From the sequence record OK322699.1: 64,000 nucleotides of DNA. The stretch is one strand, 5' to 3'. Origin of the DNA: Escherichia phage Sa157lw. The notes under the pieces were generated by a model, which worked only from the letters and a program-made list of their open reading frames with translations, was not told the DNA's origin and searched no databases. The position numbers and the translations under genes were made by a program. Shown in pieces: positions 1 to 50,584 of the stretch; the first letter of the stretch is position 1, and each line of letters starts with the position of its first letter.

Positions 1-536
1 AAGCGCAAGCCCGTGCTGAAGAAGTTCGCCGTCGTATGCTGGGCACAACCGTTGCTGAAGCAATCGCCGACGTTGAAAATCCGAAGGATGATCAGGCTTT
101 AGCGAACGCGAAGGCGGTTCTGGCCAAGAAATCTTCTGAAATGCGTCCTGCGTCTTCTACTGAAGAACGCAAGCGTCGTCATAACAAACGTGAAGAAATG
201 GTTGAAGCCGCTCGTGCTTCTAACTATGGTCCAATCCTGGCGGCGGTTGAAGCAGGGGTTACTCCTGAAGTATATTTGAGTTATGTGAACCCTGATATGC
301 GCTGGTTCCAGTTCCCTGTCACTGAATTGGCAGACGAAGCCAATCCGCATGCCCGCACTAACACCTATGTTGATCTGGCACCTATCGTTTCCGGCGGCTG
401 GGGTTTCAGTCTGTATGTGAATGGTAAGTCATTCACCAAGCGTCAGAAAATCAAAGAAACTGACGCTGAATCTCTGGTAAAGGCTATCAACGAATGGCTA
501 CCTCAGGCGTTAGCCGAAGCGAAAGCTGCTGCGTAA
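1..536 (+). CDS. hypothetical protein, C-terminal part (ORF enters from upstream of window)
   Basis: Frame open from base 3 to stop at 534-536; followed by hairpin plus T-run; no recognisable motif. Confidence 0.5.
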   Translation, partial: AQARAEEVRRRMLGTTVAEAIADVENPKDDQALANAKAVLAKKSSEMRPASSTEERKRRHNKREEMVEAARASNYGPILAAVEAGVTPEVYLSYVNPDMRWFQFPVTELADEANPHARTNTYVDLAPIVSGGWGFSLYVNGKSFTKRQKIKETDAESLVKAINEWLPQALAEAKAAA

Positions 537-564
537 TTTAACTCAGAAGCATTCAATAGATGAA

Positions 565-597
565 GGGGCTGCTATAATAGCAGCTCCTTTTGTTTAT
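565..597 (+). terminator. rho-independent terminator
   Basis: GGGGCTGCT-ATAAT-AGCAGCTCC stem-loop followed by TTTTGTTTAT. Confidence 0.55.
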
Positions 598-608
598 TGG
601 AGCACACC

Positions 609-1271
609 ATGTCGTATTCGCTCAAAGGGTTGTTGAAGCGCCCCGTACATCTGTTTGTAAAACCACCTGCTGTCGAAGGGGAATATCCGGCACGAGGAGA
701 GTTGTATTACGTTAAAGGCTCCAACGGTAGCGGCAAGTCCACTGTCCCTTCCTATCTGGCGGAGAATGATCCTCAGGCGTATGTCGTGACCTACAATGGC
801 AAGATCATGCTCACAGTTTGCCCTTCCTATAACATTATCTGTATTGGTAAATATGACAAGTCTAAGTCTAAAGGTGTTGATTCCCTGAAAGATACCGAGC
901 AGATGTTGTTCGCCTTGTCCATTGCTGATCAGCCGGAATATCTGAAATATGACGTGTTGTTTGAAGGAATCATCCCTTCAACTTTGCTCAGCTCATGGAT
1001 TCCCCGCCTGACGCGCCCACCGCGCGAATTAGTCGTGCTCTTCATGGACACCCCGCTTGAAACCTGTGTTTCCCGTGTGAAATCACGCAACGGCGGCGCA
1101 GACTTCAATGAAAGCCTGGTTGTCGAAAAGTGGGAGAGAGTTCATGACCACCGCCAACGGCATAAAGGCTTGTTCCCTACCGTTCCCGCAGGTATGATGA
1201 AGTCCAATGGCCTGACTATAGAGCAGGCTGTTTTTGCGTTTCTCAATCGTGATTTTGGGAGTATTGATTGA
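609..1271 (+). CDS. P-loop nucleotide/polynucleotide kinase-like protein
   Basis: Walker A GSNGSGKST near N-terminus (resembles the T4 Pnk kinase P-loop GCPGSGKST); ATG 609 preceded by GGAG; track ORF 597 begins at TTG. Confidence 0.55.
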   Translation: MSYSLKGLLKRPVHLFVKPPAVEGEYPARGELYYVKGSNGSGKSTVPSYLAENDPQAYVVTYNGKIMLTVCPSYNIICIGKYDKSKSKGVDSLKDTEQMLFALSIADQPEYLKYDVLFEGIIPSTLLSSWIPRLTRPPRELVVLFMDTPLETCVSRVKSRNGGADFNESLVVEKWERVHDHRQRHKGLFPTVPAGMMKSNGLTIEQAVFAFLNRDFGSID

Positions 1272-2311
1272 TGGAAATTTTTGCTTTAAACAATAATGAT
1301 ATGCTGAAGAAGGCTGTGTTGGCCATCCGTGAACACGGCATTGAGTCAGATCCTGGCAACGCAGAGATTAACACTGACGGCACTCGTTTCATTGATGGTG
1401 TAACAATTACAGTATCAGATCCACGTGACCGTTGGCTTTCCGTTGAAGGCCGCAACTCGTCGGCAATTGCTGCCATCGGTGAGACATTCTGGGTGTTGTC
1501 CGGACGTAATGATATCCGTTTCCTTTCGAAAGTCTTACCCCGCGCCGCCAACTTCTCTGATGACGGTGTAACCTGGCGAGGCGCGTATGGCCCACGTCTG
1601 TACAATAATGGCCAGTTGGATAGTGTCATCAGCCGTCTGCGTAATAATCCCAACACCCGTCAGGCGTATCTCACCATCTATGATCCGGCGCTGGACTCAG
1701 ATGAAGGTTTGGCCACCCATAGTGAAACTGGAGAAGCCAAGACCAAGGACATGATCTGTAATCTTGCTCTATTGTTCAGTATAACAGAAGGGCGATTGAA
1801 TATCACTGTCATTAACCGCAGCCAAGATGTCTTGTGGGGCATGAGTTCAATCAATTTCATTGAATTCTCTATCCTGCAAGAAGTTCTGGCGAAAGTGCTG
1901 AATGTCGAAGTTGGGTATTACAAACTGTTTTCTAACAATCTTCATTATTACAACAATGAAGTTAGTCGGAAACAACTCGGGGGTATCACTAAGAAGACCA
2001 AAACTTCTTCTGGGATGTACAATTCTTTGCTGGAATTCTCTTCAGAAAAAGTGAAGTCCCAAAAAGATATTTGTAATCTATTCCTCGGCGTGTTACAACA
2101 CTGTGACATCGGCAGTGATTTTGGTAAAATCAGAGAACATCTGAAAGGATATCAAGCAGACACGGGATTGATGATGGATATGTCATATTGCCTGTGGTGT
2201 CGCCTCAATGATACCAAAATTGACAAACGCCGTATCGCTGATGACGGTCTTCGTACTGCATTACTGCATTCCCCTGTTGATCAGAAATTTATGTGGGGGT
2301 ATGGCGAATGA
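1271..2311 (+). CDS. thymidylate synthase-family enzyme (ThyA or dUMP hydroxymethylase)
   Basis: TS-fold motifs RQAYLTIYDP, Cys in DMICNLAL, RSQDVLWGMSSINF with Asn at the pyrimidine-specifying position; about 80-aa C-terminal extension. Confidence 0.7.
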   Translation: MEIFALNNNDMLKKAVLAIREHGIESDPGNAEINTDGTRFIDGVTITVSDPRDRWLSVEGRNSSAIAAIGETFWVLSGRNDIRFLSKVLPRAANFSDDGVTWRGAYGPRLYNNGQLDSVISRLRNNPNTRQAYLTIYDPALDSDEGLATHSETGEAKTKDMICNLALLFSITEGRLNITVINRSQDVLWGMSSINFIEFSILQEVLAKVLNVEVGYYKLFSNNLHYYNNEVSRKQLGGITKKTKTSSGMYNSLLEFSSEKVKSQKDICNLFLGVLQHCDIGSDFGKIREHLKGYQADTGLMMDMSYCLWCRLNDTKIDKRRIADDGLRTALLHSPVDQKFMWGYGE

Positions 2312-2877
2312 TGTACCAGAACCTTGAATTCTTCACGGGGCGCAAGCGCTCCGGCAAGGACTTCTGTTTGGAGTCCCTGATCAGGTTTCATCATATTCAG
2401 GGTGATAAGGATATTCGTCGTCTGTCTTTCTCAGATGAACTGCGACGTGTCGCCAATTTCATCTACCCATGGCTACCAGCGGAGGTGGAGGATGCTGTGA
2501 AGGACGTTCCATTCGTACACCCTGATAACCCCAAGGGCTTAACCCCACGGCAGATCTGGCTTCATCTGGGCAGCGATACGGGCTTGCGTTATGTACAACC
2601 AGACCTGTTCCTGTCATTCTTTAAACGATATCAACTTCCTTTGGTGGAGCAGAACCCACACGTTCATTATATCGTGAGTGATTTGCGTACCCCTCAGGAA
2701 TATGAATGGGCGCTGAGCACTAAATGTCCCATCACCCGCATTTCAAAGGCGGATCGCGGTGGTATCATAGAGGATGACATTGAGGCTTTCATTGATAAGA
2801 TGGAAGTTGATTATGAATTTGTCAATCCGTTTGAAGGTTGGCAACCGTTCGTCAAATTTTATAGGGATCGGAAATGA
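2308..2877 (+). CDS. deoxynucleoside monophosphate kinase (T4 gp1-like)
   Basis: N-terminal FTGRKRSGKD resembles T4 gp1 LSGVKRSGKDT; ATG overlaps upstream stop. Confidence 0.6.
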   Translation: MMYQNLEFFTGRKRSGKDFCLESLIRFHHIQGDKDIRRLSFSDELRRVANFIYPWLPAEVEDAVKDVPFVHPDNPKGLTPRQIWLHLGSDTGLRYVQPDLFLSFFKRYQLPLVEQNPHVHYIVSDLRTPQEYEWALSTKCPITRISKADRGGIIEDDIEAFIDKMEVDYEFVNPFEGWQPFVKFYRDRK

Positions 2878-3431
2878 TCACAGCAGAGCATATTAAAAGT
2901 CTGCTCGAACTTCAAAAGGCCACCAACGTGGCCTATTTTGGGGAAGAGTGGAAGAATGTATGGAGTCAGAACGCCGTCGTCAACTCCATATATCGTGAGT
3001 GGGCAGAGTTTCTTGACGAAACGACCGCCGACTGGAAGGTCTATGGTAACGATATCGGCTTCGACCGCACGAAGGCGGTCTATGAACTGGTGGACGTGGT
3101 TCACTTCATGCTGTGTTTCATCCTCGTCGATCGCACCAAAGGAGAGATCGAGGAAGAATTAGAGGAAATGTCTAAGGATAGTTATGCCATGTCTATCGTT
3201 AACGGCATAGTTGCCCACGGCGGGGTGACCTACCGCTTTGGACAGTTCATGGGCGATCCTTGCGTTCGTTCCCTGATGTATTTCCTGAGCGCGTCTTGCT
3301 CTTACGTGGGGCTGGACGCCGAAACTTACATGCTGGCACACAAACGCAAAAATGATCGCAATCGGCTGCGTGCTGCTGGCGGTGCGAACTACGATAAGTC
3401 CGCAGAAACCCCTCTGACCCTGGAGTTCTAA
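2874..3431 (+). CDS. all-alpha dNTP pyrophosphatase (T4 gp56 dCTPase/dUTPase-like)
   Basis: YELVDVVHFML and acidic EEELEE segments resemble T4 gp56 ELVDIFHFVL region. Confidence 0.45.
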   Translation: MITAEHIKSLLELQKATNVAYFGEEWKNVWSQNAVVNSIYREWAEFLDETTADWKVYGNDIGFDRTKAVYELVDVVHFMLCFILVDRTKGEIEEELEEMSKDSYAMSIVNGIVAHGGVTYRFGQFMGDPCVRSLMYFLSASCSYVGLDAETYMLAHKRKNDRNRLRAAGGANYDKSAETPLTLEF

Positions 3432-3961
3432 TGTTTACAGTTGTCGTATCATATTATGCGGAACATGCCCCGCGCATGGCAGAGAACTTCGCTGAGTTTA
3501 TTAAACCAGGCGGTCATGTCGTTATTGCGACCAATTTCAAGAAAGAGCCAGATGGTGCGGCTACTGTAACACAACATATTACAACCAAAGAGCCGGAAAC
3601 ACTTTTTAAACGCATTGAAGATTTTGCTTTTGGCGGGGAAGAAATTCCAGAGTCATTACAGCATATCTATTTTGAAGATGCGATATATTATGTTCATGCT
3701 ATACCAAAAGATGTTACAACCGAACAACTAATGTATGTTTTGAATATTGCGTTAAATTTGTCATGTGTCAATAGGGCACAGCATAATCGTCTGCGCAATA
3801 TGTATTTAACAGAACGCGGGGGTTCCGGAATCAGTGATGAAAAACTCCCGTCGGTAATGGCAATTCAAGAAGCAATTAACATATTGTCCAAGAAAGTCTT
3901 GGGCACCGATTTATTAATCACGATCAACAAGCAAGAGGAAACGAAATGGCCGATTCATTGA
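3431..3961 (+). CDS. hypothetical protein with SAM-methyltransferase motif II-III-like N-terminus
   Basis: FTVVVSYYAEH...FAEFIKPGGHVVIAT resembles class I MTase motifs II-III but no upstream GxGxG motif. Confidence 0.4.
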   Translation: MFTVVVSYYAEHAPRMAENFAEFIKPGGHVVIATNFKKEPDGAATVTQHITTKEPETLFKRIEDFAFGGEEIPESLQHIYFEDAIYYVHAIPKDVTTEQLMYVLNIALNLSCVNRAQHNRLRNMYLTERGGSGISDEKLPSVMAIQEAINILSKKVLGTDLLITINKQEETKWPIH

Positions 3962-5031
3962 TGGCTCGCATGCTCAAGACAGCAAAGAAATTGGATCCGA
4001 ATGCCGAAGTGCTGTCTAAAACCGATGCGCTGAAGCCTGATATTATTTGTAGCACGGGTATTCCTATCCTGAATTTGGCCTGGTCTGGTCGTATTGATGG
4101 TGGGCTGATATCTGGTATTAAGCAGTTGGTGGGTGATTCTCGTACATTCAAAACCATGTTTGGTCTGGTAGATGTCAAGGCTTACATGGACAAGTTTCCC
4201 GACGCAATTTGTATCTTCGCGGATTCGGAAGGCGGCGCGAATGAAAACTATTGGACGTCCATGGGTATAGACATGGATCGTGTTTTATATCTGCCGATCG
4301 AAAACGTTGAAAAGACGAAGATCAAGCTGACTCAACTTCTGAATGATGCCCAAAAAGGCGATAAAATCATCGTCTTTATTGACTCAATCAGCCAGTTGCC
4401 GTCTACCAAAGAAGTGGATGACGCCATCGCGGGTAAAGATACACAAGATATGACCCGCGCTCGTGCTCTCAATAGTTTTTGGCGTGTCATCACTCCGTTG
4501 GTCACTGAAAAGAAATTCGTTTTGGTGTGGATCAACTCTTATTATGATGAAATCGGGAACCAGTATGCCGAACCAAATATCAAAGGCGGTAAGCAAGGTT
4601 TCCTATCATCTAACCAATTGTGGTTCATCACCCGTTCCCAAGTTAAGGAAGACAAAGATCTTCTGGGTTGGCAATTCACTGTTAACATCATGAAAGGCCG
4701 CTTTGTTCGTGAAAAAGCCAAGTTCCCTGTGACGGTATTGTATGAAGGCGGTATTGACCGTTGGTCTGGCATGTTGGAAATTGCACGCATGCTGGGATAT
4801 GTTGATCTGGTGAGCGGTTCCTGGTATCAGCGTACAGCCAAAGGCGGGTTTGATCCAGAGAAAGAGAAGAAATATCGCAAGTCAGAGCTGGGGGATGACT
4901 TCTGGTATCCACTGCTGGAAAACCCAGATTTTGTTGACGATGTAAACAATATGTTCGGTATCTCTCAGAGTTCGGTTATGCCTGCAGATATGCTGGAGCG
5001 TCTCGATCATGTCATCAAAACAACCGAGTAA
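3946..5031 (+). CDS. uvsX: UvsX recombinase (RecA-like)
   Basis: Collinear similarity to T4 UvsX: GIPILNLAWSGRIDGGL, FKTMFGL, DAICIFADSE, IIVFIDSISQL, DMTRARALNSFWRVITP. Confidence 0.9.
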   Translation: MADSLMARMLKTAKKLDPNAEVLSKTDALKPDIICSTGIPILNLAWSGRIDGGLISGIKQLVGDSRTFKTMFGLVDVKAYMDKFPDAICIFADSEGGANENYWTSMGIDMDRVLYLPIENVEKTKIKLTQLLNDAQKGDKIIVFIDSISQLPSTKEVDDAIAGKDTQDMTRARALNSFWRVITPLVTEKKFVLVWINSYYDEIGNQYAEPNIKGGKQGFLSSNQLWFITRSQVKEDKDLLGWQFTVNIMKGRFVREKAKFPVTVLYEGGIDRWSGMLEIARMLGYVDLVSGSWYQRTAKGGFDPEKEKKYRKSELGDDFWYPLLENPDFVDDVNNMFGISQSSVMPADMLERLDHVIKTTE

Positions 5032-5338
5032 TATTGCAGGGGGAGGAGACTCCCCCGTTAATTACAAAATCATCGACCCTGGTTCTGATCAGTTAGCTAT
5101 TATCGAAATAACGGAAGGCAAGTTCCGCGGTGTTCAATTTCGTATAGGAAAAGTGGGTGTCCATGTAGACAATGGAGAACCTCGGTTATCCTTTACGACG
5201 GATATATTGAAGAAGCCATGGCGTTTGTTATTTGTTAATTTGAAAGAAAATGACTTGTTCACTGTGGTGTCTGGGGATATCTTAGTTGATCTGATACAGC
5301 AAAATGCTCAGGATTACAACAAAATTTTGGTGGGGTGA
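5009..5338 (+). CDS. hypothetical protein
   Basis: 109-aa ORF overlapping uvsX end; no motif recognised. Confidence 0.35.
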   Translation: MSSKQPSNIAGGGDSPVNYKIIDPGSDQLAIIEITEGKFRGVQFRIGKVGVHVDNGEPRLSFTTDILKKPWRLLFVNLKENDLFTVVSGDILVDLIQQNAQDYNKILVG

Positions 5339-5350
5339 GTCTGGAGTCCT

Positions 5351-5833
5351 ATGTTAACACAGCAGTCTCTTAAAGAAATACTACATTATAATGAAGACAC
5401 TGGTTGGTTTACATGGTTGGTGGACCGTGGTGGTACTGCTAAAGCCGGAACTCGAGCGGGTTCTTTGAAACCTGACGGATACAGGGCAATAAGAATCGGA
5501 GATAAGAAATATTTAGAACATAGATTAGCATTTCTCTACAAAACTGGTTCTTGGCCGAAGAAATTAGTTGATCACAAAAACCGGATAAGGGACGACAATC
5601 GTTGGTTGAACTTGAGAGAATCCAATAAAAGTCAGAATGCGGTCAACACAGATTTGTACAGCCATAATACCACAGGTGCGAGAGGCGTGTTTCGATACAA
5701 GGGTAGGTGGTGCGTGCAAATCAGAGTTGACGGGAAATATAGATCGTTCGGGTATTACAATGAATTCGAAGAAGCAAAGGAAATGGCAGACAAGGTCTAC
5801 AAAGATTTGTTCGGAGAATTTTATCAAGGCTAG
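5351..5833 (+). CDS. HNH homing endonuclease with AP2-like DNA-binding domain
   Basis: HKNRIRDDNRWLNLR (HNH core) and GVFRYKGRWCVQIRVDGKYRSFGYY (AP2-like). Confidence 0.7.
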   Translation: MLTQQSLKEILHYNEDTGWFTWLVDRGGTAKAGTRAGSLKPDGYRAIRIGDKKYLEHRLAFLYKTGSWPKKLVDHKNRIRDDNRWLNLRESNKSQNAVNTDLYSHNTTGARGVFRYKGRWCVQIRVDGKYRSFGYYNEFEEAKEMADKVYKDLFGEFYQG

Positions 5834-5873
5834 TGATTGTCCTCTGTCAAACCAAATAATTTAGGAACACAAT

Positions 5874-7298
5874 ATGTTACTCGAATCTGTCGTGCTTTCC
5901 CAATTAATCTACAATGAAGAATATCAAAGAAAGATCCAGCCGTATTTGAAAGCCGATTATTTCGATAACGAAGGCGAGAAGATTATATTTGGTCTTATAG
6001 ACCATTACACTTGCGAATATAATGCTCGTCCTTCGGTTGAAGCGCTGTCTATTATGCTGGAAAAGACTTCGCTCAACGAACACGTATTTGATCAGGCCAT
6101 TTCTGCTCTTGAAAATATTAATGACAATACTTTTCATCAGGACTGGTTAGTAAAAGAAACAGAAAGTTGGGCGCGTCAGAAAGCTGTTCATAACGCAATT
6201 AGACAAGCCGTTAACATATACGGCGATGAGAAACGCAAAGATGAGATGAACAACATCCCTACTTTGCTGCAAGAAGCCCTGGCGATTCAGTTTGATTCAT
6301 ATCTCGGTCACATCTATTGGGAAATGGCTGAGCAACAATACGACCACATGAACTCTAATGAAGCGAAGATCCCTTTCGCCGTAGAGATATTCAACAAAGC
6401 AACTCGTGGTGGTGTTGGCAAGAAGACATTGAACATCGTTACAGGCGCAATCAACGCAGGTAAGACAACAACTCTGATTGATTTGGCTGCTGGTTATGCT
6501 GAGCAGGGGTTGAATGTGTTCGTATTCACCCTCGAAGTGGCCGAGAACGTCTGGCGACACCGCCTTGATGCCCGTATGATGCGCAGGGACTTCGAGTCCT
6601 TAGAGAAGCTCTCACGGCACGAGTATATTGCCACCATACAAAAACTGAGAACCCGTCAAGACGGTTCCATGAAGGGTGATATTGTTATCAAGGAATATCC
6701 TTCGGGCGCGGGGCATACAGGTTTGTATCGTCGCGATATTCTTGATTATGCGACTGCAACAGGAATTACGCCTGATGTTATCATCATTGACTACCTGGGG
6801 GAATCTGCGTCTTCTCGCCTTCCCGCTCACTTGATGCAAAACACCAACGTGTATTATACATCCGTGGCGCGGGAATTCCGTGCTCTTGGGTTTGAGTTTG
6901 ATTGCCCTGTTTGGACAGGCATGCAGTTTAACCGTGAAAAGCAATCAGCAACTGATGGTGATATCAGTGACTTGGCAGACGCTATCGGTATCCCGAAGGT
7001 CGCTGACTTTATCATGGCATTTTATGCCCCAGACGAACTGGCGGCTGTTAAGAAAGCCAGAGCATCAATCTTGAAAAATCGTTATGCCAACAAGCAGAAA
7101 CTCAAATCTTTCTTGTTCGGTATGGACCAAGATAAACAGATATTGTTCGACTTGGACTGGAATGAAGTCAAACGAGACCTGACTGATGAAGAAGCCCGTT
7201 ATGTTGAAAACGTGCATATCAAGCATGACTTGAATAAAACGGGGGACTCAAATGATGTTAAAAAAGCCGAGACCGTCAATAGTTGGAATTTCGGTTAA
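5874..7298 (+). CDS. replicative DNA helicase (T4 gp41 / DnaB-like)
   Basis: Walker A GAINAGKTT, Walker B-like IIIDYLGE, DnaB-like N-terminal domain. Confidence 0.85.
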   Translation: MLLESVVLSQLIYNEEYQRKIQPYLKADYFDNEGEKIIFGLIDHYTCEYNARPSVEALSIMLEKTSLNEHVFDQAISALENINDNTFHQDWLVKETESWARQKAVHNAIRQAVNIYGDEKRKDEMNNIPTLLQEALAIQFDSYLGHIYWEMAEQQYDHMNSNEAKIPFAVEIFNKATRGGVGKKTLNIVTGAINAGKTTTLIDLAAGYAEQGLNVFVFTLEVAENVWRHRLDARMMRRDFESLEKLSRHEYIATIQKLRTRQDGSMKGDIVIKEYPSGAGHTGLYRRDILDYATATGITPDVIIIDYLGESASSRLPAHLMQNTNVYYTSVAREFRALGFEFDCPVWTGMQFNREKQSATDGDISDLADAIGIPKVADFIMAFYAPDELAAVKKARASILKNRYANKQKLKSFLFGMDQDKQILFDLDWNEVKRDLTDEEARYVENVHIKHDLNKTGDSNDVKKAETVNSWNFG

Positions 7299-7327
7299 CT
7301 TCAATAATGGTGGTCATAGGGTATAAT
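7299..7327 (+). promoter_or_regulatory. sigma70-like promoter candidate
   Basis: CTTCAATAA then 16 nt then TATAAT, about 35 nt upstream of ATG 7362. Confidence 0.3.
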
Positions 7328-7361
7328 CTCTATGATCTGAATATTAACCCAGGAGCACATC

Positions 7362-7694
7362 ATGTCGGATGTTGCATTTATAGCTGACCTGATTCAGGCG
7401 GCACAACAGGTGTGCCAGTCTGGACAAACCAGTCTCAGTCTCTCTACAGAGCAGACATTGGAATTTTACAAGAATCGACGGCATTGGGGTAAGGCTGTTA
7501 AGATACATTGCGAACCAGGAGAATTGGTTCAGCTCGATCTTCCATCTTTCCCGTTGCCAGTGCAGACCAATACTCAGGAATATTATAAAGTTGAAGGTGT
7601 CGACATTATTCCTAAGTTTGGTTTCCACAGTATCGTTTATTTCTTCCTGCGCCGTTTGGGGACCAGTATTGGCCCACTCGGTTCTCGTCATTAA
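7362..7694 (+). CDS. hypothetical protein
   Basis: 110-aa ORF in + operon, no motif. Confidence 0.4.
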   Translation: MSDVAFIADLIQAAQQVCQSGQTSLSLSTEQTLEFYKNRRHWGKAVKIHCEPGELVQLDLPSFPLPVQTNTQEYYKVEGVDIIPKFGFHSIVYFFLRRLGTSIGPLGSRH

Positions 7695-7706
7695 TGAGGA
7701 TATGTT

Positions 7707-8018
7707 ATGTCAGTTGAACAAATCGGGTTTTACCAACTTCCTTCTGATCCCAAGCTGCGTCAAAAGATGATGCAGACATTGGAAAATTGCCGCGCCGCCC
7801 AGATCCGTATCAAGTCTGAACAGACATTTGTTACCGAAGCTCTGGCCGAATTGGCAAAAGAAACAGGCATCAAAGCCGTTGATCTGCGCAAAGTCGTTAC
7901 TGACCGCGCTGGCGGAACATACACCAAGACCATCGAGACCAGCGCCAAATACCAAGATCTCTATGAGTCTCTGTATCCTAATGCAGCGCCTGATCGCGCA
8001 GCCGATCCTCAGCCATAA
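7707..8018 (+). CDS. hypothetical protein
   Basis: 103-aa ORF, RBS GAGGA upstream. Confidence 0.4.
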   Translation: MSVEQIGFYQLPSDPKLRQKMMQTLENCRAAQIRIKSEQTFVTEALAELAKETGIKAVDLRKVVTDRAGGTYTKTIETSAKYQDLYESLYPNAAPDRAADPQP

Positions 8019-8030
8019 ATCCCCCAGAAA

Positions 8031-8058
8031 GCCCAACAAATTGTTGGGCTTTTTATTT
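8031..8058 (+). terminator. rho-independent terminator
   Basis: GCCCAACA-AAT-TGTTGGGC stem-loop followed by TTTTTATTT. Confidence 0.55.
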
Positions 8059-8136
8059 GAAACCTTTACTTCAATAAAACATACGGCTATCATTTAACCT
8101 ACTTTGAAAAGTTTCACTATATCATGAGAGGCAAAT

Positions 8137-9330
8137 ATGAAAGCCAAGACCTTCAGTATTCCTATCGACAACATTGGTCGTGTCAAGGAACGTCTGGCCA
8201 AACTTGAAAGAACGGCCAAGCGCCTGAATCTCGAGTTCCCTCTTGTCGAATACAGCGAACCATACAAAACCCAGCATCGCGATTCTATCACTGGTGAAAA
8301 ATTCTATCGGTGGTGGCAGGATTGTACACTCACTGGTGAAGGCATCGACCGCCCTGTTTCCTACGGCGGGTGGAGCATTATTGGACAATTCAATCACCAA
8401 TATCCAAAAGTCATCTTGAATAAATTAGCAGATGACATCCACCCTAATTTCATTCAAAGATTCGAAGCCGAAAACGTGTCTTGGTGTGAGCATTGTAATA
8501 AATCTGTGCGTCGTCATAACACATATGTTGTTCGTAACGAACAATCCGGCGCTCAAATGTTGGTCGGCAGTAGCTGTATGCACCATTACGTTCCTCATCA
8601 GAAATCGCTTGATGCCGTGATGTCTTATTATATGTCGATACATGAAATGTTCTCACCTGATGAAGATGACCCTGAAGGCATCTATCGAGTGAACGAACCT
8701 GATTACGTTGACACTGAAGGTTATTTGCGGAATTGCTTTCAGGTTCTGCTATCTGGTATGAGTATGAAGAGCGATGATTTTGGTCGAGTTCTTGGTCATA
8801 TTTCTAGCGGGACTCGTCCGGAGAAAGGTTCTGACATTGAGATATTCTATAACAAGGCAGTTAAAGCCCGTGAAGATGCTCAATCAGAGATGTACCATAT
8901 GATGCTTTTCATCGCCGCGTTGTCTGAGAACAATGATTTCAACGTTCGTCTGAAACGTATGTGTGAACCTGGATATCACCTCGTTAAGGACTCCACGACA
9001 GTTCGTTGGGGAGCAGCAAAGTATTATGATTATATCCACACCCCCCGCCAAATGCGTTCTGTATCAAATTGGGTGGGGGGAGTCGGTGAAATGTTAGAAG
9101 TGCAAGTCAAATTCGAAGCAAGGATTTTCCTGTATTCATCTGATTATGGTGACACGTATCTGTATACTTTCAAAACCAAAGAAGGCAATACCATTACATG
9201 GAAGACTTCTTATATGGAAACCGAATTCCTGGAAGGTGATATGATCATTCGTGGTCGCGTCAAAGAATTGACCGAATTCAAAGATGTTAAACAAACTCAG
9301 GTAACAAGGGCAAAACTGAGGAAATTATGA
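8137..9330 (+). CDS. hypothetical protein with Cys/His cluster
   Basis: 397 aa; WCEHCNKSVRRH...GSSCMHHY possible zinc site; RBS GAGAGG. Confidence 0.5.
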   Translation: MKAKTFSIPIDNIGRVKERLAKLERTAKRLNLEFPLVEYSEPYKTQHRDSITGEKFYRWWQDCTLTGEGIDRPVSYGGWSIIGQFNHQYPKVILNKLADDIHPNFIQRFEAENVSWCEHCNKSVRRHNTYVVRNEQSGAQMLVGSSCMHHYVPHQKSLDAVMSYYMSIHEMFSPDEDDPEGIYRVNEPDYVDTEGYLRNCFQVLLSGMSMKSDDFGRVLGHISSGTRPEKGSDIEIFYNKAVKAREDAQSEMYHMMLFIAALSENNDFNVRLKRMCEPGYHLVKDSTTVRWGAAKYYDYIHTPRQMRSVSNWVGGVGEMLEVQVKFEARIFLYSSDYGDTYLYTFKTKEGNTITWKTSYMETEFLEGDMIIRGRVKELTEFKDVKQTQVTRAKLRKL

Positions 9331-9443
9331 TTCTTTTACAATTTGTTTTGAAAGCATTTGCATTCGGTCTTATCGCATGCGGAGTGATCACAGCTATGCT
9401 GTTAATCATAGCCCTGATCATCCCCTTTAAGAGGAAGAAATGA

Positions 9444-9644
9444 ATGAAGCGCGAAATTAAGGATGTGTATGATCCTGGATCTTGTTGCCCAGGACACGAC
9501 AAATATCCTTCAGAAAAATATAAAAATCGTCGTTCTGTAGCTAAACGTTCCGAGGGGATAAAGAAAGAACATCGTCACGCTCGCCGTGTTAAGCGCCTTG
9601 CGTTGAAAATCGATATATTCTATTCACCTCAGGAGGATTTTTAA
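9444..9644 (+). CDS. small basic hypothetical protein
   Basis: 66-aa ORF. Confidence 0.3.
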   Translation: MKREIKDVYDPGSCCPGHDKYPSEKYKNRRSVAKRSEGIKKEHRHARRVKRLALKIDIFYSPQEDF

Positions 9645-9853
9645 TGGAATGTTCATGTGGAGGGCAAGGCACAAGTGCATACTTGCCATTTAACACCGTC
9701 AAGGAAGCCGAAGACGCTGGATATGCCGTGGACAAGGCTCCCTGTGTAATTGCCATTAAGGATTGTCCGTGCTGTAAGAGGCACTCTCAGAACGTTTGGT
9801 ATGCCCCAGAAGCAAAGGGCAAAATTAATTTATTGAATATGATGAGGAAGTAA
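9644..9853 (+). CDS. small Cys-rich hypothetical protein
   Basis: CSCGG...CPCCKRH. Confidence 0.3.
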   Translation: MECSCGGQGTSAYLPFNTVKEAEDAGYAVDKAPCVIAIKDCPCCKRHSQNVWYAPEAKGKINLLNMMRK

Positions 9854-9854
9854 T

Positions 9855-10193
9855 ATGACCACACTCGTAGAAACATTATTCCCAGGATGCACCCTTGGGC
9901 GCGGCGGTAGCGAAGCCAACGGGCTGGCAATTGACACCGAACCACAGAACTGCGTTGTTATCGACAAATTCCATGACAATCACTATCCTCTGAGCCATCG
10001 TCGTGATCATTATCTGGTTTCTGTGGGCGAAACATTGGTCTCTCTTCGTATTTGTGAAGCAATGCCTGGTTATGGTTATGACGCATTTGCATATATCCAT
10101 AGCGTTTCCAATGGGGAAATGGAGAAAGAAACCCTGACTGAACAATTCAAAGGATGGAAAGAATCTTTCACTTCTGTCAAGGAAAGAAGTTAG
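9855..10193 (+). CDS. hypothetical protein
   Basis: 112-aa ORF, start overlaps upstream stop. Confidence 0.35.
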   Translation: MTTLVETLFPGCTLGRGGSEANGLAIDTEPQNCVVIDKFHDNHYPLSHRRDHYLVSVGETLVSLRICEAMPGYGYDAFAYIHSVSNGEMEKETLTEQFKGWKESFTSVKERS

Positions 10194-10251
10194 AATAATT
10201 CTATTGAAGTCTCTGGGGTTATAATAACAAGACGAATAACCCTGGAGACAC

Positions 10252-11679
10252 ATGATGCTTCCTCTCTTAGAAATAATCCAAAATCTTCGTGATACCAAAG
10301 GCACTAATGCTAAGAAAGCCGTGTTGACCGAAGCGTTCAGGACCAATCCGGAACTGGTTGATTTCCTTCAATACGTTTATGATCCAATGCGTTCTTATTA
10401 TCGCACCCAATTCAATCTGAATGCATTCCCTCGCATGCTTTCGCGCGGCGTTGTCGGTAGCTGGGATCAGGTTTATGACGTTCTTGATATGATGTCAGAA
10501 CGTCGTATTGGCGGGATGAAGGCCGACCAAGAACTGGCAAAAGCCGCAACGAATATTCACCCTGATTATCACACCCTCATCCAGATCATTCTCGACCGAG
10601 ACATTAAAGCGGGGATTGCTGAGAAAGGTATCAACGCAGCATTCAACGCAGCTGGAGGCACAGGTCGCCTGATTAACATCCTCCCATATCATCGTTATGA
10701 CAACATGACGATTGATTTGTTGAAGACGATGGACTTCAAGCGCGGCGTATTCAGTCAGCTGAAGTCTGACGGGATGTTCGCCAACATCATTTGTCGCTAT
10801 GGAAAAGATCCAGAGATTCGTTCTCGCTCTGGTTCTTTGATTGCGGGTGGTTCCGTTGATAACCTATCATTGGTTTTCAAAGATATCATCTATGACGCTG
10901 GGATTGGGGAAAGCGTTTTTCATGGTGAACTCCTTGTTATCGATCTGAAGACGAATACAGTCCTTCCCAGAGCTATCGGTAACGGTAAACTTAACAGCGT
11001 CATCCAGACTGGTGAACCTCTGGAAGATCGTTATCGAGTGATTTATCGTGTATGGGATGTTGTTCCATACGACAAATGGTTCAACGCAGAGCGGGTTGAC
11101 ACCCCGTATGAACGACGCTTCGATATTATCCAGCAGCTGTTTGATGAAGACGACGGGTTGGTTCAGGTTCAGGAGACCCGTGTTGTTCACTCGTTTGAAG
11201 AGGCGGTTGATCATTTCAAGGACGCGCTGGCCCGTGGTGAAGAAGGAACGATCTGCAAATCGGCTGATATGCCATGGGAAGACGGCACGTCCTCTGAAGG
11301 TCTGAAATTGAAGATGGAAGTGGAATGCGACCTTGAAATTGTGGGATTTAACGAAGGGGATAAGAAAGGCAAACATGCCAAGACTTTTGGTTCTCTGTTA
11401 TGTAAGACTTCCGACGGCCTATTAGTCGTTGGCGTCTCTGGGATCTCAGATGAGCTGAGACTCCGGATGTGGGAAAACCAGGGCGACTACATTGGCATGA
11501 TAGCTGCGGTGCTCTCTAACGGTGTCCAGGATAAAACAGATGACGCCATGAAGTCCTTGTTCCTCCCGCGACTTGTCGAAGTGCGCACAGACAAGAAAGT
11601 TGCCAACACGCTGGCTGAGGTCTATGCTATCCAGAAAGCGTACATTGAAAACATTCTGGTGTTGCTGGAGGCCGCGTGA
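10252..11679 (+). CDS. ATP-dependent DNA ligase
   Basis: KxDG adenylation motif in SQLKSDGMFANI, EGTICKS, N-terminal similarity to T4 ligase; RBS GGAG. Confidence 0.8.
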   Translation: MMLPLLEIIQNLRDTKGTNAKKAVLTEAFRTNPELVDFLQYVYDPMRSYYRTQFNLNAFPRMLSRGVVGSWDQVYDVLDMMSERRIGGMKADQELAKAATNIHPDYHTLIQIILDRDIKAGIAEKGINAAFNAAGGTGRLINILPYHRYDNMTIDLLKTMDFKRGVFSQLKSDGMFANIICRYGKDPEIRSRSGSLIAGGSVDNLSLVFKDIIYDAGIGESVFHGELLVIDLKTNTVLPRAIGNGKLNSVIQTGEPLEDRYRVIYRVWDVVPYDKWFNAERVDTPYERRFDIIQQLFDEDDGLVQVQETRVVHSFEEAVDHFKDALARGEEGTICKSADMPWEDGTSSEGLKLKMEVECDLEIVGFNEGDKKGKHAKTFGSLLCKTSDGLLVVGVSGISDELRLRMWENQGDYIGMIAAVLSNGVQDKTDDAMKSLFLPRLVEVRTDKKVANTLAEVYAIQKAYIENILVLLEAA

Positions 11680-11900
11680 GCAAAGAAACCAGCACGGAAC
11701 TGAAATGGCGTGACCTTGCTCTTCAGTTCGACGGTCATCGTATGCAGTCAATATGCTTCTTGAAACAAATCTTGAGCACATTGCCCGAAACCGAGTTTGT
11801 GGAAGCGCGTGAATTCCTGAAAGCAGGTCCATTGCCTGGAGAGGAAGTATTGCGCCAGCGCCTGGTTGATATGATGAACAAGGAGCCTGACAATGGGTGA
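11676..11900 (+). CDS. hypothetical protein
   Basis: 74-aa ORF overlapping ligase stop. Confidence 0.35.
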   Translation: MSKETSTELKWRDLALQFDGHRMQSICFLKQILSTLPETEFVEAREFLKAGPLPGEEVLRQRLVDMMNKEPDNG

Positions 11901-12141
11901 GTACATGAGTTTCTGGTGGGCGAAGTTCCTTGTTGAACTTCAAATATCCGGCGCGGTGTTTTTGTTACTGTTCTTGATAGCCATGATACCCGTTACACGG
12001 AAAGCGATCAAGCAATGGCGTTGCAAGCACCCCACCTATCGTGAGAACTACGCATGCCAAGCCATCTGCACACATTGCGGGAAGGATATGGGCTTCGTCG
12101 GTATTATTCGCAAAATGAAGAATCACAAAGAGGTGTGGTGA
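11893..12141 (+). CDS. small membrane protein
   Basis: Hydrophobic helix AVFLLLFLIAMIPV plus Cys pairs. Confidence 0.35.
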   Translation: MGEYMSFWWAKFLVELQISGAVFLLLFLIAMIPVTRKAIKQWRCKHPTYRENYACQAICTHCGKDMGFVGIIRKMKNHKEVW

Positions 12142-12347
12142 TGAACCAGATGTGTGAGAGGGTGAAAGAATTCATCCACCGGAACCCCAATTGCTCCTAC
12201 GCGCAGATCGCTGAAGGTGCCAATATCCCCATGAGTATGGTCAGTGGTTGCCTTCGCATTTTGATACGCGATGGTCATGTTGTGAAGTATAACCATAAAG
12301 ATGCTCAGGGTAAAACCCTATCTAATTCGTATGATGTTGTGGGTTAG
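12141..12347 (+). CDS. small winged-helix-like DNA-binding protein
   Basis: MNQMCERVKEF...SYAQIAEGANIPMSMVSGCLRIL; ATG overlaps upstream stop. Confidence 0.35.
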   Translation: MNQMCERVKEFIHRNPNCSYAQIAEGANIPMSMVSGCLRILIRDGHVVKYNHKDAQGKTLSNSYDVVG

Positions 12348-12375
12348 AATTGAATTAAGGGGGCGTAACCCCCCT

Positions 12376-12400
12376 TTCAATAAATCTATGGCAGTATAAT
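12376..12400 (+). promoter_or_regulatory. sigma70-like promoter candidate
   Basis: TTCAAT then 13 nt then TATAAT after a G/C hairpin, upstream of ATG 12429. Confidence 0.3.
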
Positions 12401-12428
12401 TCCAACAAATCATCACAACGGTATTGTT

Positions 12429-12692
12429 ATGAAACTTGTTGACAAACAACCAAGAAAGAATAATGACTCATTACATCTCTTAACCATTATGCGGGAGTTG
12501 GGAGTTTCTGAATTGCAAATGATGAAGTTGATGAATTGCTCTGACGTTGTCTATAATTGGACAAACGGTTATCGTCTTATCCCAAAATCATTCCGTCGTT
12601 TTATTTTGGCATTGGTGTTTATTCATCGCCAAGGAAAAACAGAAGAGTTTCAACGTTTCGTTAAATCAGAGGAGAGATCACGTGGTTGGTAA
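12429..12692 (+). CDS. small HTH (XRE-like) protein
   Basis: LTIMRELGVSELQMMKLMNCSDVVYNWTNG helix-turn-helix pattern. Confidence 0.4.
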   Translation: MKLVDKQPRKNNDSLHLLTIMRELGVSELQMMKLMNCSDVVYNWTNGYRLIPKSFRRFILALVFIHRQGKTEEFQRFVKSEERSRGW

Positions 12693-12846
12693 AAATCCGC
12701 CGTCATATGTAAAAATCGGGATCGCTTTCCGGAACGCAATGCTTTTCATTAAAGAGAAAGGCTTGATGTCGGAGTTCAATCAGTTCTGTTCTGAACGTCA
12801 CAGATTACAGAAACAGAAAAGCAGGGAGAAACGCCATGATAACTGA
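12682..12846 (+). CDS. small hypothetical protein
   Basis: GTG start after GGAGAG; alternative frame to previous ORF. Confidence 0.25.
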   Translation: MVGKNPPSYVKIGIAFRNAMLFIKEKGLMSEFNQFCSERHRLQKQKSREKRHDN

Positions 12847-13498
12847 GTGGGAGAAAATGCAATATGAACGTGCATTTAACGTTTATTGCATATATATGGC
12901 GATCAAGTTGCATTTCACCACCAAAGATTTTGATTATGGTCTGTATGGGCCGATGAACAATTACAAGTTTGAAACATTCTATTCTAAACAGGGCGTGGCA
13001 AAGCAATTTGCTAAACTTGCTCGTCGGTTTGAATCTTCCCAGGGTGAAGTGGTGGAAAATTATATCATCGCCAACTTTGTTAAATCACCCAAAACATGGG
13101 TGACAACATTACTCACCCGTCAGGCTCAAGAAAATTATAATGAATATCGCCGCCTGTACGATAACTTTTCATATAATTTTCTTGACCATTTTGAACGTTA
13201 TATGATTCCGGAAATAAAAGAAAGAGGTGTGAACTTTATCCAGTACATCAAAGGAAATGGGAATGGTCACCCACCGTTACTGACAGACATTATCATCAAA
13301 CGTTATCCGATTTGGTTTTTGGTTGGATTGAATAAAGTGGTGGGATTTATTCATTTATATGATACAATACTCAAGGAAGATATTTATTGGAATTCTGAGT
13401 CGTTCTTATTGAAAAAGACTAATTCTGTGGTTCCGGATGAAAATACAGAATACACGAAAGGAAAACTCCGTGAGCTAATCCTTGCCCACGGAATTTGA
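12836..13498 (+). CDS. helicase loader (T4 gp59-like)
   Basis: Size, position and KLHFTTKDFDYGLYG-type N-terminus resemble gp59. Confidence 0.5.
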   Translation: MITEWEKMQYERAFNVYCIYMAIKLHFTTKDFDYGLYGPMNNYKFETFYSKQGVAKQFAKLARRFESSQGEVVENYIIANFVKSPKTWVTTLLTRQAQENYNEYRRLYDNFSYNFLDHFERYMIPEIKERGVNFIQYIKGNGNGHPPLLTDIIIKRYPIWFLVGLNKVVGFIHLYDTILKEDIYWNSESFLLKKTNSVVPDENTEYTKGKLRELILAHGI

Positions 13499-15439
13499 TT
13501 ACCAATCCCAAAGAATACGACCTGCGTCAGTACGGTTGGACGGCTCCAGTTGTGAACTGTTGAAGTTGTTTGTCGTACTGACTTTCTTCGAGTTATCAAC
13601 ATTTTGTTGTACAGGCATTACCACACTGGCTGGCGGGTTGGCGTAGGAAGATTTAACTTCCTCAATGTTGTTAGCCGCTCTCCCCTGAACCGGATATGCC
13701 CCACCCAGAGTACCTCCCCCGATCCCAGCATATGCATCTTTCAATTGAGAAGTGCGATCTGTTACGTTCACAGCATCCGAAGAAACCCCAGAAGGCATTG
13801 GAGTCAGCGTGCTGATATCTGCATTAGGTTGTGCTGGCGATTGACTGTTCGGTGGTACAGAGGCATTCTCAGGAGCCTTATCGTCTTGGCTTATCAGCAT
13901 AGACTGTCTTGCTTCCGCCATCTTATTCCTGGCCGCTTCACCACCCAACGCATCGGGGATAATACTGACAAACTTATCCACGATATCAAACATCGCATTG
14001 GTGATAGCATTCAACATGTTGAAGAAAGGTTTCTTCACATTTTCAGCAAATCCTTTCTTCATGTCTTCAACGACTTTGTTTGCAGCCGCCATGCCGTCAT
14101 CTAACAGGCCAGTTATTCCACCCGTTACCCAATCAACCAATTTTATCAATTGGCCTTGCAAGTTATCTGCAAGTTTACCAGGTATTTCGGTCAGTGATGT
14201 GCTCTTCCCAATACCCGCAAACAAATCGTTGGTGACCCAATCAACAATCGAGTTCAACCAACGCACGGGCGCTTCGGTCATTTTCAGCACTTGTTCACGG
14301 AACGCCTTTCCAAACCCAGCATTGTTCCATCCGAATATTTCAGCAACCCAATCAGCGAGATCCCCGAAACTACCGACCAGCTCTGTTATCCCTGCCTGAA
14401 CCCGATCAACGATCGATACTTGCGCTTTACCAAGGATTTCTTTAGCATTAAAGAACCCTTTACCGAATTCAAATACAGATGTTATTAACGCCAGAGGTCC
14501 AACTCGAAGCATCTTGGTTGCTGCTTTCAGGGGCGCAAGCAACCCGCCGATCCCAGCACCAAACCCCATGAATAATTTAATGAAGCCACCAACAAGTTTT
14601 AATGGGGACATCAGGAGTTTTAACGCGCCCAGTCCAAGGAGTGCCCCCAGCGCCGCGCCTAACCCAGAAGATTGACCATCTTGTTTAGGCTCAGACGGAG
14701 GGATAGAACCAGCCTCTGGATTGTTCTTGTTTTCTTTACCTTCTTCACCACGACGGAATTTCTCTTCTTCTCTATATTTTTGATCACTTTCATAGATACG
14801 TGTCAGAGTATCATTAAGATCTTCGTTCATGTATCCCAATTTGTCATCAATGCTGTCGAGGCGGGTAACAGTTTCGTTACTGGCATCTTTATTGAAATCT
14901 AGCGTGTCCTTATGCGTTTGAAGCATTATGTCAGTCAGGTTTACGATCTCCCCTCCGACCAACGCCAGCTTATCCTTTAATCCATCAAGGCGTTCAAGAC
15001 TATCTTCGTTGGCCGCGCCCAATTGATCTGATATCATGTCAAGATATTCAACTGACATGTCGTCAACCGGACCATTCGCTGCTTCACCAAATTTTTCGAT
15101 CTTGGTGGCGATACGCATCAGTTCTTCATTGCCATCCTTTGTTAGACTGACGGTGTCTTTCATCCAAGTGCTGTAATCCCTTGTGAAAATGGGACTGACG
15201 CGGACGAACCCACCAACAATATCATTCACCGATGGGAATTTAATTGGCGGTACTTTCTGCTCCTGATTAGACGCCTGTCGTGTCTTCAGAGATTGCAGTT
15301 GTTTGTTGACATCGGCGAGCTGTTTATTCGTCTCGGATTGGGCGCGCAATTGCTTGCGCTCCATCATTTCTTTTTTGATTTTATCCAAAACCTTGACGAT
15401 GTCTTGCTGCCCTGGTGTCGGTTGATTGTTATCTGCCAT
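13499..15439 (-). CDS. tail tape-measure-like protein
   Basis: 646 aa; coiled-coil N-terminus and long Gly/Ala/Leu-rich hydrophobic segment. Confidence 0.55.
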   Translation of the reverse strand: MADNNQPTPGQQDIVKVLDKIKKEMMERKQLRAQSETNKQLADVNKQLQSLKTRQASNQEQKVPPIKFPSVNDIVGGFVRVSPIFTRDYSTWMKDTVSLTKDGNEELMRIATKIEKFGEAANGPVDDMSVEYLDMISDQLGAANEDSLERLDGLKDKLALVGGEIVNLTDIMLQTHKDTLDFNKDASNETVTRLDSIDDKLGYMNEDLNDTLTRIYESDQKYREEEKFRRGEEGKENKNNPEAGSIPPSEPKQDGQSSGLGAALGALLGLGALKLLMSPLKLVGGFIKLFMGFGAGIGGLLAPLKAATKMLRVGPLALITSVFEFGKGFFNAKEILGKAQVSIVDRVQAGITELVGSFGDLADWVAEIFGWNNAGFGKAFREQVLKMTEAPVRWLNSIVDWVTNDLFAGIGKSTSLTEIPGKLADNLQGQLIKLVDWVTGGITGLLDDGMAAANKVVEDMKKGFAENVKKPFFNMLNAITNAMFDIVDKFVSIIPDALGGEAARNKMAEARQSMLISQDDKAPENASVPPNSQSPAQPNADISTLTPMPSGVSSDAVNVTDRTSQLKDAYAGIGGGTLGGAYPVQGRAANNIEEVKSSYANPPASVVMPVQQNVDNSKKVSTTNNFNSSQLEPSNRTDAGRILWDW

Positions 15440-19665: not shown

Positions 19666-20187
19666 TTAATTCCTTACTTTGTCAGGATTAGATAAGATTT
19701 GTTCGTATCCGACTTCTCCTTGATAGTCGAAAACATGCTGAAGAATCGCCATATCGTCTACCATCCGATAAACTTCAATTCCAGCGTTCATCAATTTTTT
19801 GATTCCATCCATAATACGATATGGCTCACGATAATATACTTTATCGATTTTACCGCTATCTATTATCTTTTGAGTGCAATCAGGGCAAGGACTATGTGTC
19901 ACAAACATAACCAACCCTGTGAAATCATCTGCATTTTCGGGGATACGCATTAGAGCATTTTCCTCCGCATGAACGACACACGGGTTTGTAACAATTTGCC
20001 CGTGTTGTTCCATCTCACAAACATTCGGCATGCCAGGAGGCGTTCCGTTCCATCCTATAGCCACAGGCTGATCAGTTTCAGGGTTTACAATAACACAACC
20101 GACTTGCAGACGCCGAGCATAACTGGTTACACCATATGCTGCAGCTGATCGCATATGAGCAAACATCATACGTGGTTTGATAGCCAT
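19666..20187 (-). CDS. dCMP deaminase
   Basis: Zinc-binding HAEENAL and SPCPDC motifs. Confidence 0.85.
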   Translation of the reverse strand: MAIKPRMMFAHMRSAAAYGVTSYARRLQVGCVIVNPETDQPVAIGWNGTPPGMPNVCEMEQHGQIVTNPCVVHAEENALMRIPENADDFTGLVMFVTHSPCPDCTQKIIDSGKIDKVYYREPYRIMDGIKKLMNAGIEVYRMVDDMAILQHVFDYQGEVGYEQILSNPDKVRN

Positions 20188-50505: not shown

Positions 50506-50584
50506 TGTTTGTCTCCGGTTAACCGTGCCGTCAGCACGTCCCCGTAATTTAACCGAGGAACGTTCAATGACCAAGGAGTTTAAA

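Follow-up and report, generated by a model that had tools for sequence, protein, structure and literature searches.

A gene cluster of Escherichia phage Sa157lw as the probable core of a ViI-type thymidine-hypermodification pathway

The virion DNA of Salmonella phage ViI and of the phages CBA120, CBA6 and 1.255.O carries 5-(2-aminoethoxy)methyl-deoxyuridine (5-NeOmdU) at about 40% of the thymidines, as determined by high-performance liquid chromatography (HPLC), mass spectrometry and nuclear magnetic resonance (Lee et al. 2018, PMC5889632). In the same study, HPLC of ViI DNA revealed canonical dC and modified T. The modified base was reconstituted on DNA containing 5-hydroxymethyl-deoxyuridine (5-hmdU) using lysates expressing the ViI proteins gp67, gp160, gp226, gp243 and gp247 (PMC5889632). 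The individual steps were resolved with purified enzymes: a kinase produces the phosphorylated form 5-PmdU, serine is joined to it through the hydroxyl group by gp247, and the resulting product is then decarboxylated by gp226 (Lee et al. 2021, PMC8989533). For the steps preceding replication, the introduction of the latter paper gives a scheme consisting of dCMP deaminase, dUMP hydroxymethylase, deoxynucleoside monophosphate (dNMP) kinase and dTTPase with dTMPase, and the 5-hmdU DNA kinase (5-HMUDK) was reported to co-occur with a 'dUMP hydroxymethyltransferase' of the thymidylate synthase (TS) superfamily (PMC5889632). The hypermodification genes are conserved across the Ackermannviridae according to a 2024 review (PMC11721090), and a 2026 preprint describes 5-NeOmdU at 16% of T in phiHS2, another phage of this family (bioRxiv 10.64898/2026.05.19.726188). 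Here, we analysed a stretch of 64,000 nucleotides of Escherichia phage Sa157lw (sequence record OK322699.1), referred to as the window, with a focus on the gene cluster at positions 609-3431, whose second gene codes for a protein of the TS fold.

The window is a Kuttervirus (Ackermannviridae) sequence and is collinear with the reverse strand of ViI (Vi01, NC_015296), with window positions 1-13644 corresponding to ViI 39473-25000 and positions 38572-64000 to ViI 157061-131916. Positions 500-3500 are 99.5-99.7% identical at the nucleotide level to many Kuttervirus phages, with matches in 269 phage records, and the genes of the cluster have the same order and orientation as in ViI. The published pathway can be applied to the window because the window genes are 99% identical to those of ViI, whose virion DNA carries 5-NeOmdU. 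We are thus highly confident that region 609-3431 represents the core of the thymidine-hypermodification pathway of ViI-type Kuttervirus phages (Table 1). The assignment of the post-replicative steps rests, by analogy, on experiments with ViI proteins that are 92-99.8% identical to those of the window, and we infer the pre-replicative steps from homology and from the paradigm of the phages SPO1, PhiW-14 and SP10. The cluster itself combines pre- and post-replicative steps, since its first gene codes for a kinase acting on DNA and not on the nucleotide pool. The window differs from ViI in a replaced middle section of the pyrophosphatase, in the N-terminus of the pyridoxal phosphate (PLP)-dependent enzyme and in an extra open reading frame (ORF) at 5351-5833; none of these differences touches a catalytic residue known from ViI. 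The system was published between 2018 and 2021 and is also covered in reviews, and the finding is in this respect already known.

Table 1 Features of the pathway and of its surroundings in the 64,000-nucleotide window.
Feature	Position	Strand	Evidence
Terminator-like hairpin	562-590	+	13-bp stem, TATAAT exactly in the loop, T-rich tail; consensus scan and sequence read
5-hmdU DNA kinase	609-1271	+	Pfam PF18748; ViI gp67 orthologue
TS-fold dUMP 5-hydroxymethylase (predicted), 346 aa	1271-2311	+	Pfam PF00303; orthologue of ViI Vi01_060c 'thyA'
dNMP kinase, T4 gp1 family, 189 aa	2308-2877	+	phrog_139
All-alpha NTP pyrophosphohydrolase (dimeric dUTPase / T4 gp56 family)	2874-3431	+	Pfam dUTPase_2, phrog_173
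Phage ACT-like domain protein	3431-3961	+	Pfam PF24021, E=2.9e-89
dCMP deaminase, dUMP supply	19666-20187	-	dCMP_cyt_deam_1, E=1.9e-17; phrog_174, E=4.6e-64
Amino acid:DNA transferase (aGPT-Pplase2), ViI gp247 orthologue	43322-44557	-	Pfam PF18724 ADDT, E=3.2e-58
5-hmdU DNA kinase 2, ViI gp243 orthologue	45100-46014	-	Pfam PF18747 HMUD2, E=2.4e-168; 300/304 identical
NT5C-like deoxypyrimidine 5'-nucleotidase homologue	46329-47171	-	Pfam NT5C, E=7e-08, 33 bits (cut-off 24.8); phrog_420 'unknown function'
Family B DNA polymerase	47509-50607	-	Pfam DNA_pol_B_exo1, DNA_pol_B; collinear with ViI Vi01_190
PLP-dependent decarboxylase, ViI gp226 orthologue	54184-55611	-	92% identity over 394 aa

The protein encoded by the first gene of the cluster matched the Pfam family of 5-hmdU DNA kinases (HMUDK_HMUD1) with E=1.7e-116, contains the P-loop GSNGSGKST and is identical at 219 of 220 positions to ViI gp67 (YP_004327432), which phosphorylates 5-hmdU in DNA to 5-PmdU (PMC5889632, PMC8989533). 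A preliminary description of the locus, made from the sequence alone, had counted this P-loop kinase among the enzymes of the nucleotide pool; the P-loop was confirmed, but the role in the pool has to be given up in favour of a role on DNA. A search of the PDB with this protein gave no meaningful match (best E=0.056). In phrog_800 and RefSeq, the family is labelled 'terminase small subunit'. We rejected this label, as gp67 is a demonstrated DNA kinase and as the true small terminase of ViI adjoins the large terminase (Vi01_162c). Elsewhere in GenBank, the kinase is named 'thymidylate kinase', 'baseplate hub' or 'hypothetical', a misannotation that is propagating.

The TS-fold protein encoded by the second gene is identical to its ViI orthologue at 344 of 346 positions. 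It comprises 346 residues from the ATG at 1271, the length for which the ViI protein is likewise annotated; the 347 residues given in the preliminary description are obtained only from a TTG at 1268 or by counting the stop codon. The protein passed the superfamily threshold of Pfam Thymidylat_synt (E=1.3e-14, 54.4 bits at a cut-off of 24.3) and matched phrog_3676 with E=1.5e-182. With the TS equivalog models of NCBIfam it scored 32-53 bits, and thus did not reach their cut-offs of 108-405 bits.

The residues of the protein were compared in an alignment with E. coli ThyA, T4 gp42 and SPO1 gp29, using sequences from annotated records, and the alignment columns were counted over 52 relatives (long-form TS homologues) from public data; residue numbers refer to the 346-aa protein. 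Cys163 pairs with the catalytic cysteines of ThyA (Cys146) and gp42 (Cys148), and R183-S184-Q-D186 pairs with the phosphate/folate motif R166-S-C-D169 of ThyA; both are invariant in the 52 relatives. The catalytic Cys and the RSxD motif had thus been recognised correctly at the outset, and so had the residue on which the assignment to uracil was built: Asn195 of the 'SSINF' motif pairs with Asn177 of ThyA and with an Asn of SPO1 gp29, but with Asp179 of T4 gp42. At this base-specifying column, Asn is present in 48 of the 52 relatives and Asp in four. Glu71, Tyr106, Arg183, Asp186 and Asn195 are common to the window protein and ThyA. Three positions before the catalytic cysteine (D160-M-I-C163), all 52 relatives carry the Asp of the window protein, which is also found in SPO1 gp29 and T4 gp42; E. 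coli ThyA has Leu143 at this position. In a study on the ternary complex of the T4 dCMP hydroxymethylase, the Asp at Cys-3 was described to activate the substrate water, with the D145N variant being inactive, and was proposed as a signature setting hydroxymethylases apart from thymidylate synthases (PMC6400193). The same study describes Trp80 and Trp83 of ThyA as a solvent shield and the C-terminal tail as closing over the pterin. In our alignment, Trp80 of ThyA has no counterpart and the position of Trp83 is occupied by Phe95; following H225-x-Y227, a helical domain of about 120 residues stands in place of the ThyA tail. The comparison with the three enzymes, which the preliminary description had proposed as a check, did not reveal a canonical ThyA active site, with Asp160 in place and both tryptophans lost.

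The best characterised relative of the TS-fold protein by sequence is SPO1 gp29, which is a dUMP hydroxymethylase according to Wilhelm & Ruger 1992, as cited in PMC8989533. The two proteins are 34.6% identical over the catalytic core (E=1.4e-31), and their families, phrog_3676 and phrog_5131, are reciprocal second-best matches. E. coli ThyA showed 21-22% identity to the gene (E=3.6e-11), and T4 gp42 gave no tblastn match at E<=1. In the PDB, the best sequence match was the CMP hydroxymethylase MilA (E=1.2e-17). The AlphaFold2 (AF2) model of the protein (predicted local distance difference test, pLDDT, 94) superposes on MilA from end to end, the C-terminal helical domain included (template modelling scores TMq 0.75 and TMt 0.82), and on ThyA structures in the core only (TMq ~0.55). 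The model matched 396 PDB chains at E<=0.001, and among the matches listed all chains were of the TS fold, namely MilA, thymidylate synthases and a designed hydrolase on an E. coli TS scaffold. Asp160, the loss of the ThyA tail, the MilA-like fold, the kinship to SPO1 gp29 and the TS scores below cut-off favour hydroxymethylation over methylation, and the protein is predicted, from its sequence and model, to be a dUMP 5-hydroxymethylase. The preliminary description had left the product as dTMP or 5-hydroxymethyl-dUMP (5-hmdUMP): the direction towards uracil stands, and the choice is narrowed towards 5-hmdUMP, which is favoured by Asp160, the missing tail and the MilA-like fold.

In the proposed pathway, the dCMP deaminase and the gp56-family pyrophosphatase would supply dUMP to the TS-fold enzyme. 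There, Cys163 would attack C6 of dUMP, methylene-tetrahydrofolate would provide the one-carbon unit and water, instead of hydride, would be added to the exocyclic methylene, resulting in 5-hmdUMP. The gp1-family dNMP kinase would convert 5-hmdUMP to 5-hmdUDP, from which a host nucleoside diphosphate (NDP) kinase would form 5-hmdUTP, and the family B polymerase, which would have to accept 5-hmdUTP, would incorporate it into DNA. In the replicated DNA, the kinase of the cluster, of which a paralogue lies at 45100-46014, would phosphorylate 5-hmdU to 5-PmdU; the transferase would exchange the phosphate for the side-chain oxygen of serine, yielding O-serinyl-T, and the PLP enzyme would decarboxylate this intermediate to 5-(2-aminoethoxy)methyl-dU. 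The expectation that the virion DNA of Sa157lw contains 5-NeOmdU together with plain T is supported by analogy with ViI-like virions, in which the modified base makes up about 40% of T and makes the DNA resistant to many restriction endonucleases. The earlier suggestion of a thymine-derived modification in the virion is thereby upheld on the basis of the 5-NeOmdU of ViI, with the amendment that the end point would be neither 5-hmdU nor plain T only.

Compared to other known systems, the TS-fold protein resembles SPO1 gp29 in the fold, the catalytic Cys, RSxD, the uracil-specifying Asn, the Asp at Cys-3, an 'RQ' in place of the 'RR' of ThyA and a long C-terminal extension. The two differ in that gp29 belongs to another PHROG (5131 versus 3676), that SPO1 keeps 5-hmdU unmodified in its DNA and that the SPO1 gene stands alone ahead of replication genes and not beside a kinase or pyrophosphatase gene. 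With T4, the cluster shares the principle that a TS-fold hydroxymethylase, a dNMP kinase and an NTP pyrophosphatase reshape the pyrimidine pool; T4 gp1 and gp56 fall into the PHROGs of the window proteins, and gp42, too, has Asp at Cys-3. However, gp42 carries Asp179 instead of Asn195 and has only 246 residues without the C-terminal domain, and the T4 product is hydroxymethyl-dC (hm-dC), which is then glucosylated. Moreover, genes 42, 1 and 56 are dispersed in T4, so that the preliminary description erred in speaking of an operon in T-even phages. MilA of Streptomyces rimofaciens (PDB 5jnh, 5b6d) is the best full-length structural match, including the C-terminal helical domain, but is only 19% identical to the window protein, and its substrate is a cytosine ribonucleotide in the making of an antibiotic and not dUMP destined for DNA. 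E. coli ThyA has in common the core fold and the dUMP-binding Cys, Arg, Ser, Asp, Asn, His and Tyr; it differs in Leu143 versus Asp160, in Trp80, which is without counterpart, in Trp83 versus Phe95 and in the tail versus the 120-aa domain.

Several points weigh against the assignment of the cluster to the ViI-type pathway and of the TS-fold protein to dUMP hydroxymethylation. The activity of the Ackermannviridae TS homologue was itself inferred ('dU hmt') in PMC5889632 and PMC8989533, where the reconstitutions began from 5-hmdU DNA, and in ViI virions about 60% of T carries no modification (PMC5889632). The second half of the hydroxymethylase signature of PMC6400193, a Ser/Thr two positions before the conserved Tyr, is absent from the window protein, which reads G104-A-Y106. 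This Ser/Thr looks, from the sequences compared, peculiar to dCMP hydroxymethylases and not general, since it is likewise missing from SPO1 gp29 (A-P-Y), which is a genuine dUMP hydroxymethylase. Furthermore, the pyrophosphatase allele differs from that of ViI (64% identity overall), and gp160 (aGPT-Pplase1), the fifth gene used in the reconstitution, was not found by tblastn in the 64-kb window. The ViI gene is located at 87.4 kb, beyond the segment to which the window corresponds, and the absence of gp160 from the window is therefore uninformative.

If the TS-fold protein were an ordinary thymidylate synthase converting dUMP to dTMP, the cluster would merely raise the supply of dTTP. Such an enzyme would agree with the match to Pfam Thymidylat_synt, with the label 'thymidylate synthase' in nearly all related records, with the five residues shared with ThyA (Asn195, Glu71, Tyr106, Arg183 and Asp186), with plain thymidine being the majority of T in ViI virions and with the lack of any other ThyA homologue in the 64-kb window (tblastn). 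We nevertheless consider it extremely unlikely, given a best score of 52.8 bits against the equivalog cut-offs, the replacement of Leu143 of ThyA by an invariant Asp160 and of the ThyA tail by a ~120-aa helical domain that MilA and SPO1 gp29 likewise possess, and the closer relationship to the SPO1 dUMP hydroxymethylase than to any ThyA. In addition, the gene is translationally coupled to that of a kinase for which no substrate other than 5-hmdU in DNA is known, and the downstream enzymes require 5-hmdU DNA. The opposite departure, an enzyme that hydroxymethylates dCMP or CMP in the way T4 gp42 or MilA does, in a phage that modifies cytosine, could draw on MilA as the best PDB match in both sequence and fold and on the Asp at the specificity position in four of 52 relatives. 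Its probability is virtually nil, however, and we regard it as effectively refuted already: the window protein has Asn195 and not Asp, gp42 does not match it by tblastn at E<=1, the dCMP deaminase of the phage would destroy the substrate and ViI DNA contains canonical dC and modified T by HPLC.

A bifunctional or leaky enzyme that releases both 5-hmdUMP and dTMP, so that the ratio of about 40:60 of modified to plain T is set at the stage of the nucleotide pool, would be compatible with the partial substitution in ViI (~40%) and phiHS2 (16%), with the missing Ser of the hydroxymethylase S-x-Y motif and with the statement in PMC5889632 that it is unknown how these phages convert 5-hmdU to T. This is very unlikely in our view, as the literature on PhiW-14 and SP10 has an in-situ conversion of 5-hmdU in DNA to T or a hypermodified base (PMC5889632) and as the addition of water is favoured by Asp160, which is invariant, and by an open architecture like that of MilA. 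It is likewise very unlikely that plain T (~60-84%) is set at the pool stage more generally, either by a partition of the TS homologue between water addition and hydride transfer or by the mosaic pyrophosphatase tuning the pools of dTTP, dUTP and 5-hmdUTP. A dUMP 5-hydroxymethylase within a ViI-type pathway remains our preferred interpretation of the second gene.

The third gene codes for a protein identical to ViI Vi01_059c at 188 of 189 positions, with the P-loop GRKRSGKD. It matched phrog_139 with E=6e-48, and T4 gp1 belongs to the same family (E=1.8e-65). The designation 'gp1-like', already used in the preliminary description, is retained because of this shared membership; T4 gp1 gave no tblastn or phmmer match to the window protein at E<=1, and the sole match in the PDB was a dTMP kinase (E=0.67). 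Similarly, the gp56-like nature of the pyrophosphatase encoded by the fourth gene was confirmed owing to phrog_173 (E=1.1e-40), which also contains T4 gp56 (E=5.8e-39), and to Pfam dUTPase_2 (E=8e-08). In a BLASTP comparison with T4 gp56, only the 'ELVDxxHF' motif was aligned (E=0.002), and the match to the C. jejuni dUTPase 1w2y had E=0.0026. Based on these relationships, we infer that the protein is a dUTPase and possibly also a dTTPase, which would supply dUMP and exclude U (and T) from the DNA. The allele is mosaic: it hardly differs from that of ViI in its N- and C-terminal thirds, whereas the middle (about residues 85-135) is replaced. This exact allele is present in 18 phage records, and it shares about 80% identity with the alleles of Agtrevirus, Limestonevirus and Klebsiella Ackermannviridae but only about 65% with those of most Kuttervirus phages. 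ORFs were found at the coordinates that had been given at the start for the cluster and for the dCMP deaminase, and the deaminase was verified by its Pfam and PHROG matches and by the zinc motifs HAE and PCxxC, which are visible in the translation. For the cluster and the deaminase alike, the family matches greatly exceed what chance would produce.

Of the genes for the later steps, the one for the transferase codes for a protein identical to ViI gp247 at 410 of 411 positions, the sole change, E395D, lying outside the Pfam domain. The decarboxylase keeps the PLP lysine ('GSKLRQ') that was proposed for the Schiff base in ViI gp226 (K92; PMC8989533). Its match to Pfam PALP was weak and below cut-off (E=3.6e-07), and neither the kinases nor the transferase nor the PLP enzyme is represented by a model in NCBIfam. 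The ORF has 475 codons for amino acids, compared to 424 aa in ViI, with about 80 differing N-terminal residues and an uncertain start codon. The stretch at 55329-55850 (~520 bp) has no counterpart in ViI at the nucleotide level, where the corresponding interval is ~360 bp, and it takes in the first ~80-90 codons of the decarboxylase gene as well as the junction to the gene upstream. The NT5C-like gene, located between the genes for the DNA polymerase and the second kinase, is unannotated in ViI. Its product is a candidate dTMPase in terms of the classical scheme for phages with hydroxymethyluracil.

As to its layout, the cluster continues beyond the pyrophosphatase gene, and 609-3961 comprises five closely packed genes on the plus strand with ATG starts at 609, 1271, 2308, 2874 and 3431. 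The stop and start signals of neighbouring genes overlap in the sequence (TGATG at 1269-1273, ATGA at 2308-2311, ATGA at 2874-2877 and TAATG at 3429-3433), and the ATG at 609 is preceded by a GGAG ribosome-binding site at a distance of 6 nt. The hairpin upstream ends 19 nt before the start codon of the kinase gene; judged from its sequence, it may terminate transcription of the preceding gene and mark where the cluster begins on its 5' side. Sigma-70-like sites were no more common than in shuffled sequence (19 versus 13.5 +/- 3.6 expected), and no promoter was assigned to the cluster. The gene for the ACT-like protein is translationally coupled to the pyrophosphatase gene via the TAATG overlap and located upstream of uvsX, and its product might regulate the nucleotide operon by binding a small molecule.

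Reasoning from the sequence alone, i.e. from Asn versus Asp and the gene context, had led the preliminary description to the correct answer. Most records label the hydroxymethylase 'thymidylate synthase' and the kinase 'terminase small subunit', 'thymidylate kinase' or 'hypothetical', and annotation-based screens will therefore miss the pathway. The locus carries little weight as a discovery, as the pathway, its product 5-NeOmdU and its conservation in Ackermannviridae have already been published.

Among the 52 relatives of the TS-fold protein, loci were noted for Asp-bearing long-form homologues (L008 8001-8984, L009/L010 1144-2130) and for an Asn-bearing one (L012 10001-10999). The Asp variant P0105 (L008) adjoins genes for GCV_T-like, HAD, DCD, two UDG-like, DNA-methylase-like and radical-SAM proteins. 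The Asp variant P0114 (L009/L010) is accompanied in its locus by Thymidylate_kin, HMUDK_hel, Peptidase_C1/M78 and ACPS genes, and the Asn variant P0052 (L012) sits in a locus similar to that of P0114; the L012 locus looks cellular. Such loci may represent cytosine-directed or cellular analogues of the pathway. Two further features of the window were recorded. The 160-aa ORF at 5351-5833, located between the homologue of Vi01_055c and a gp41-type helicase gene, resembles by eye an HNH/AP2-type homing endonuclease and is an insertion relative to ViI, with 537 bp in the window versus ~8 bp in ViI. Four tRNA genes (Ser-GCT, Ile-GAT, Asn-GTT and Met-CAT) lie on the minus strand at 57598-58720, in a stretch without long ORFs.

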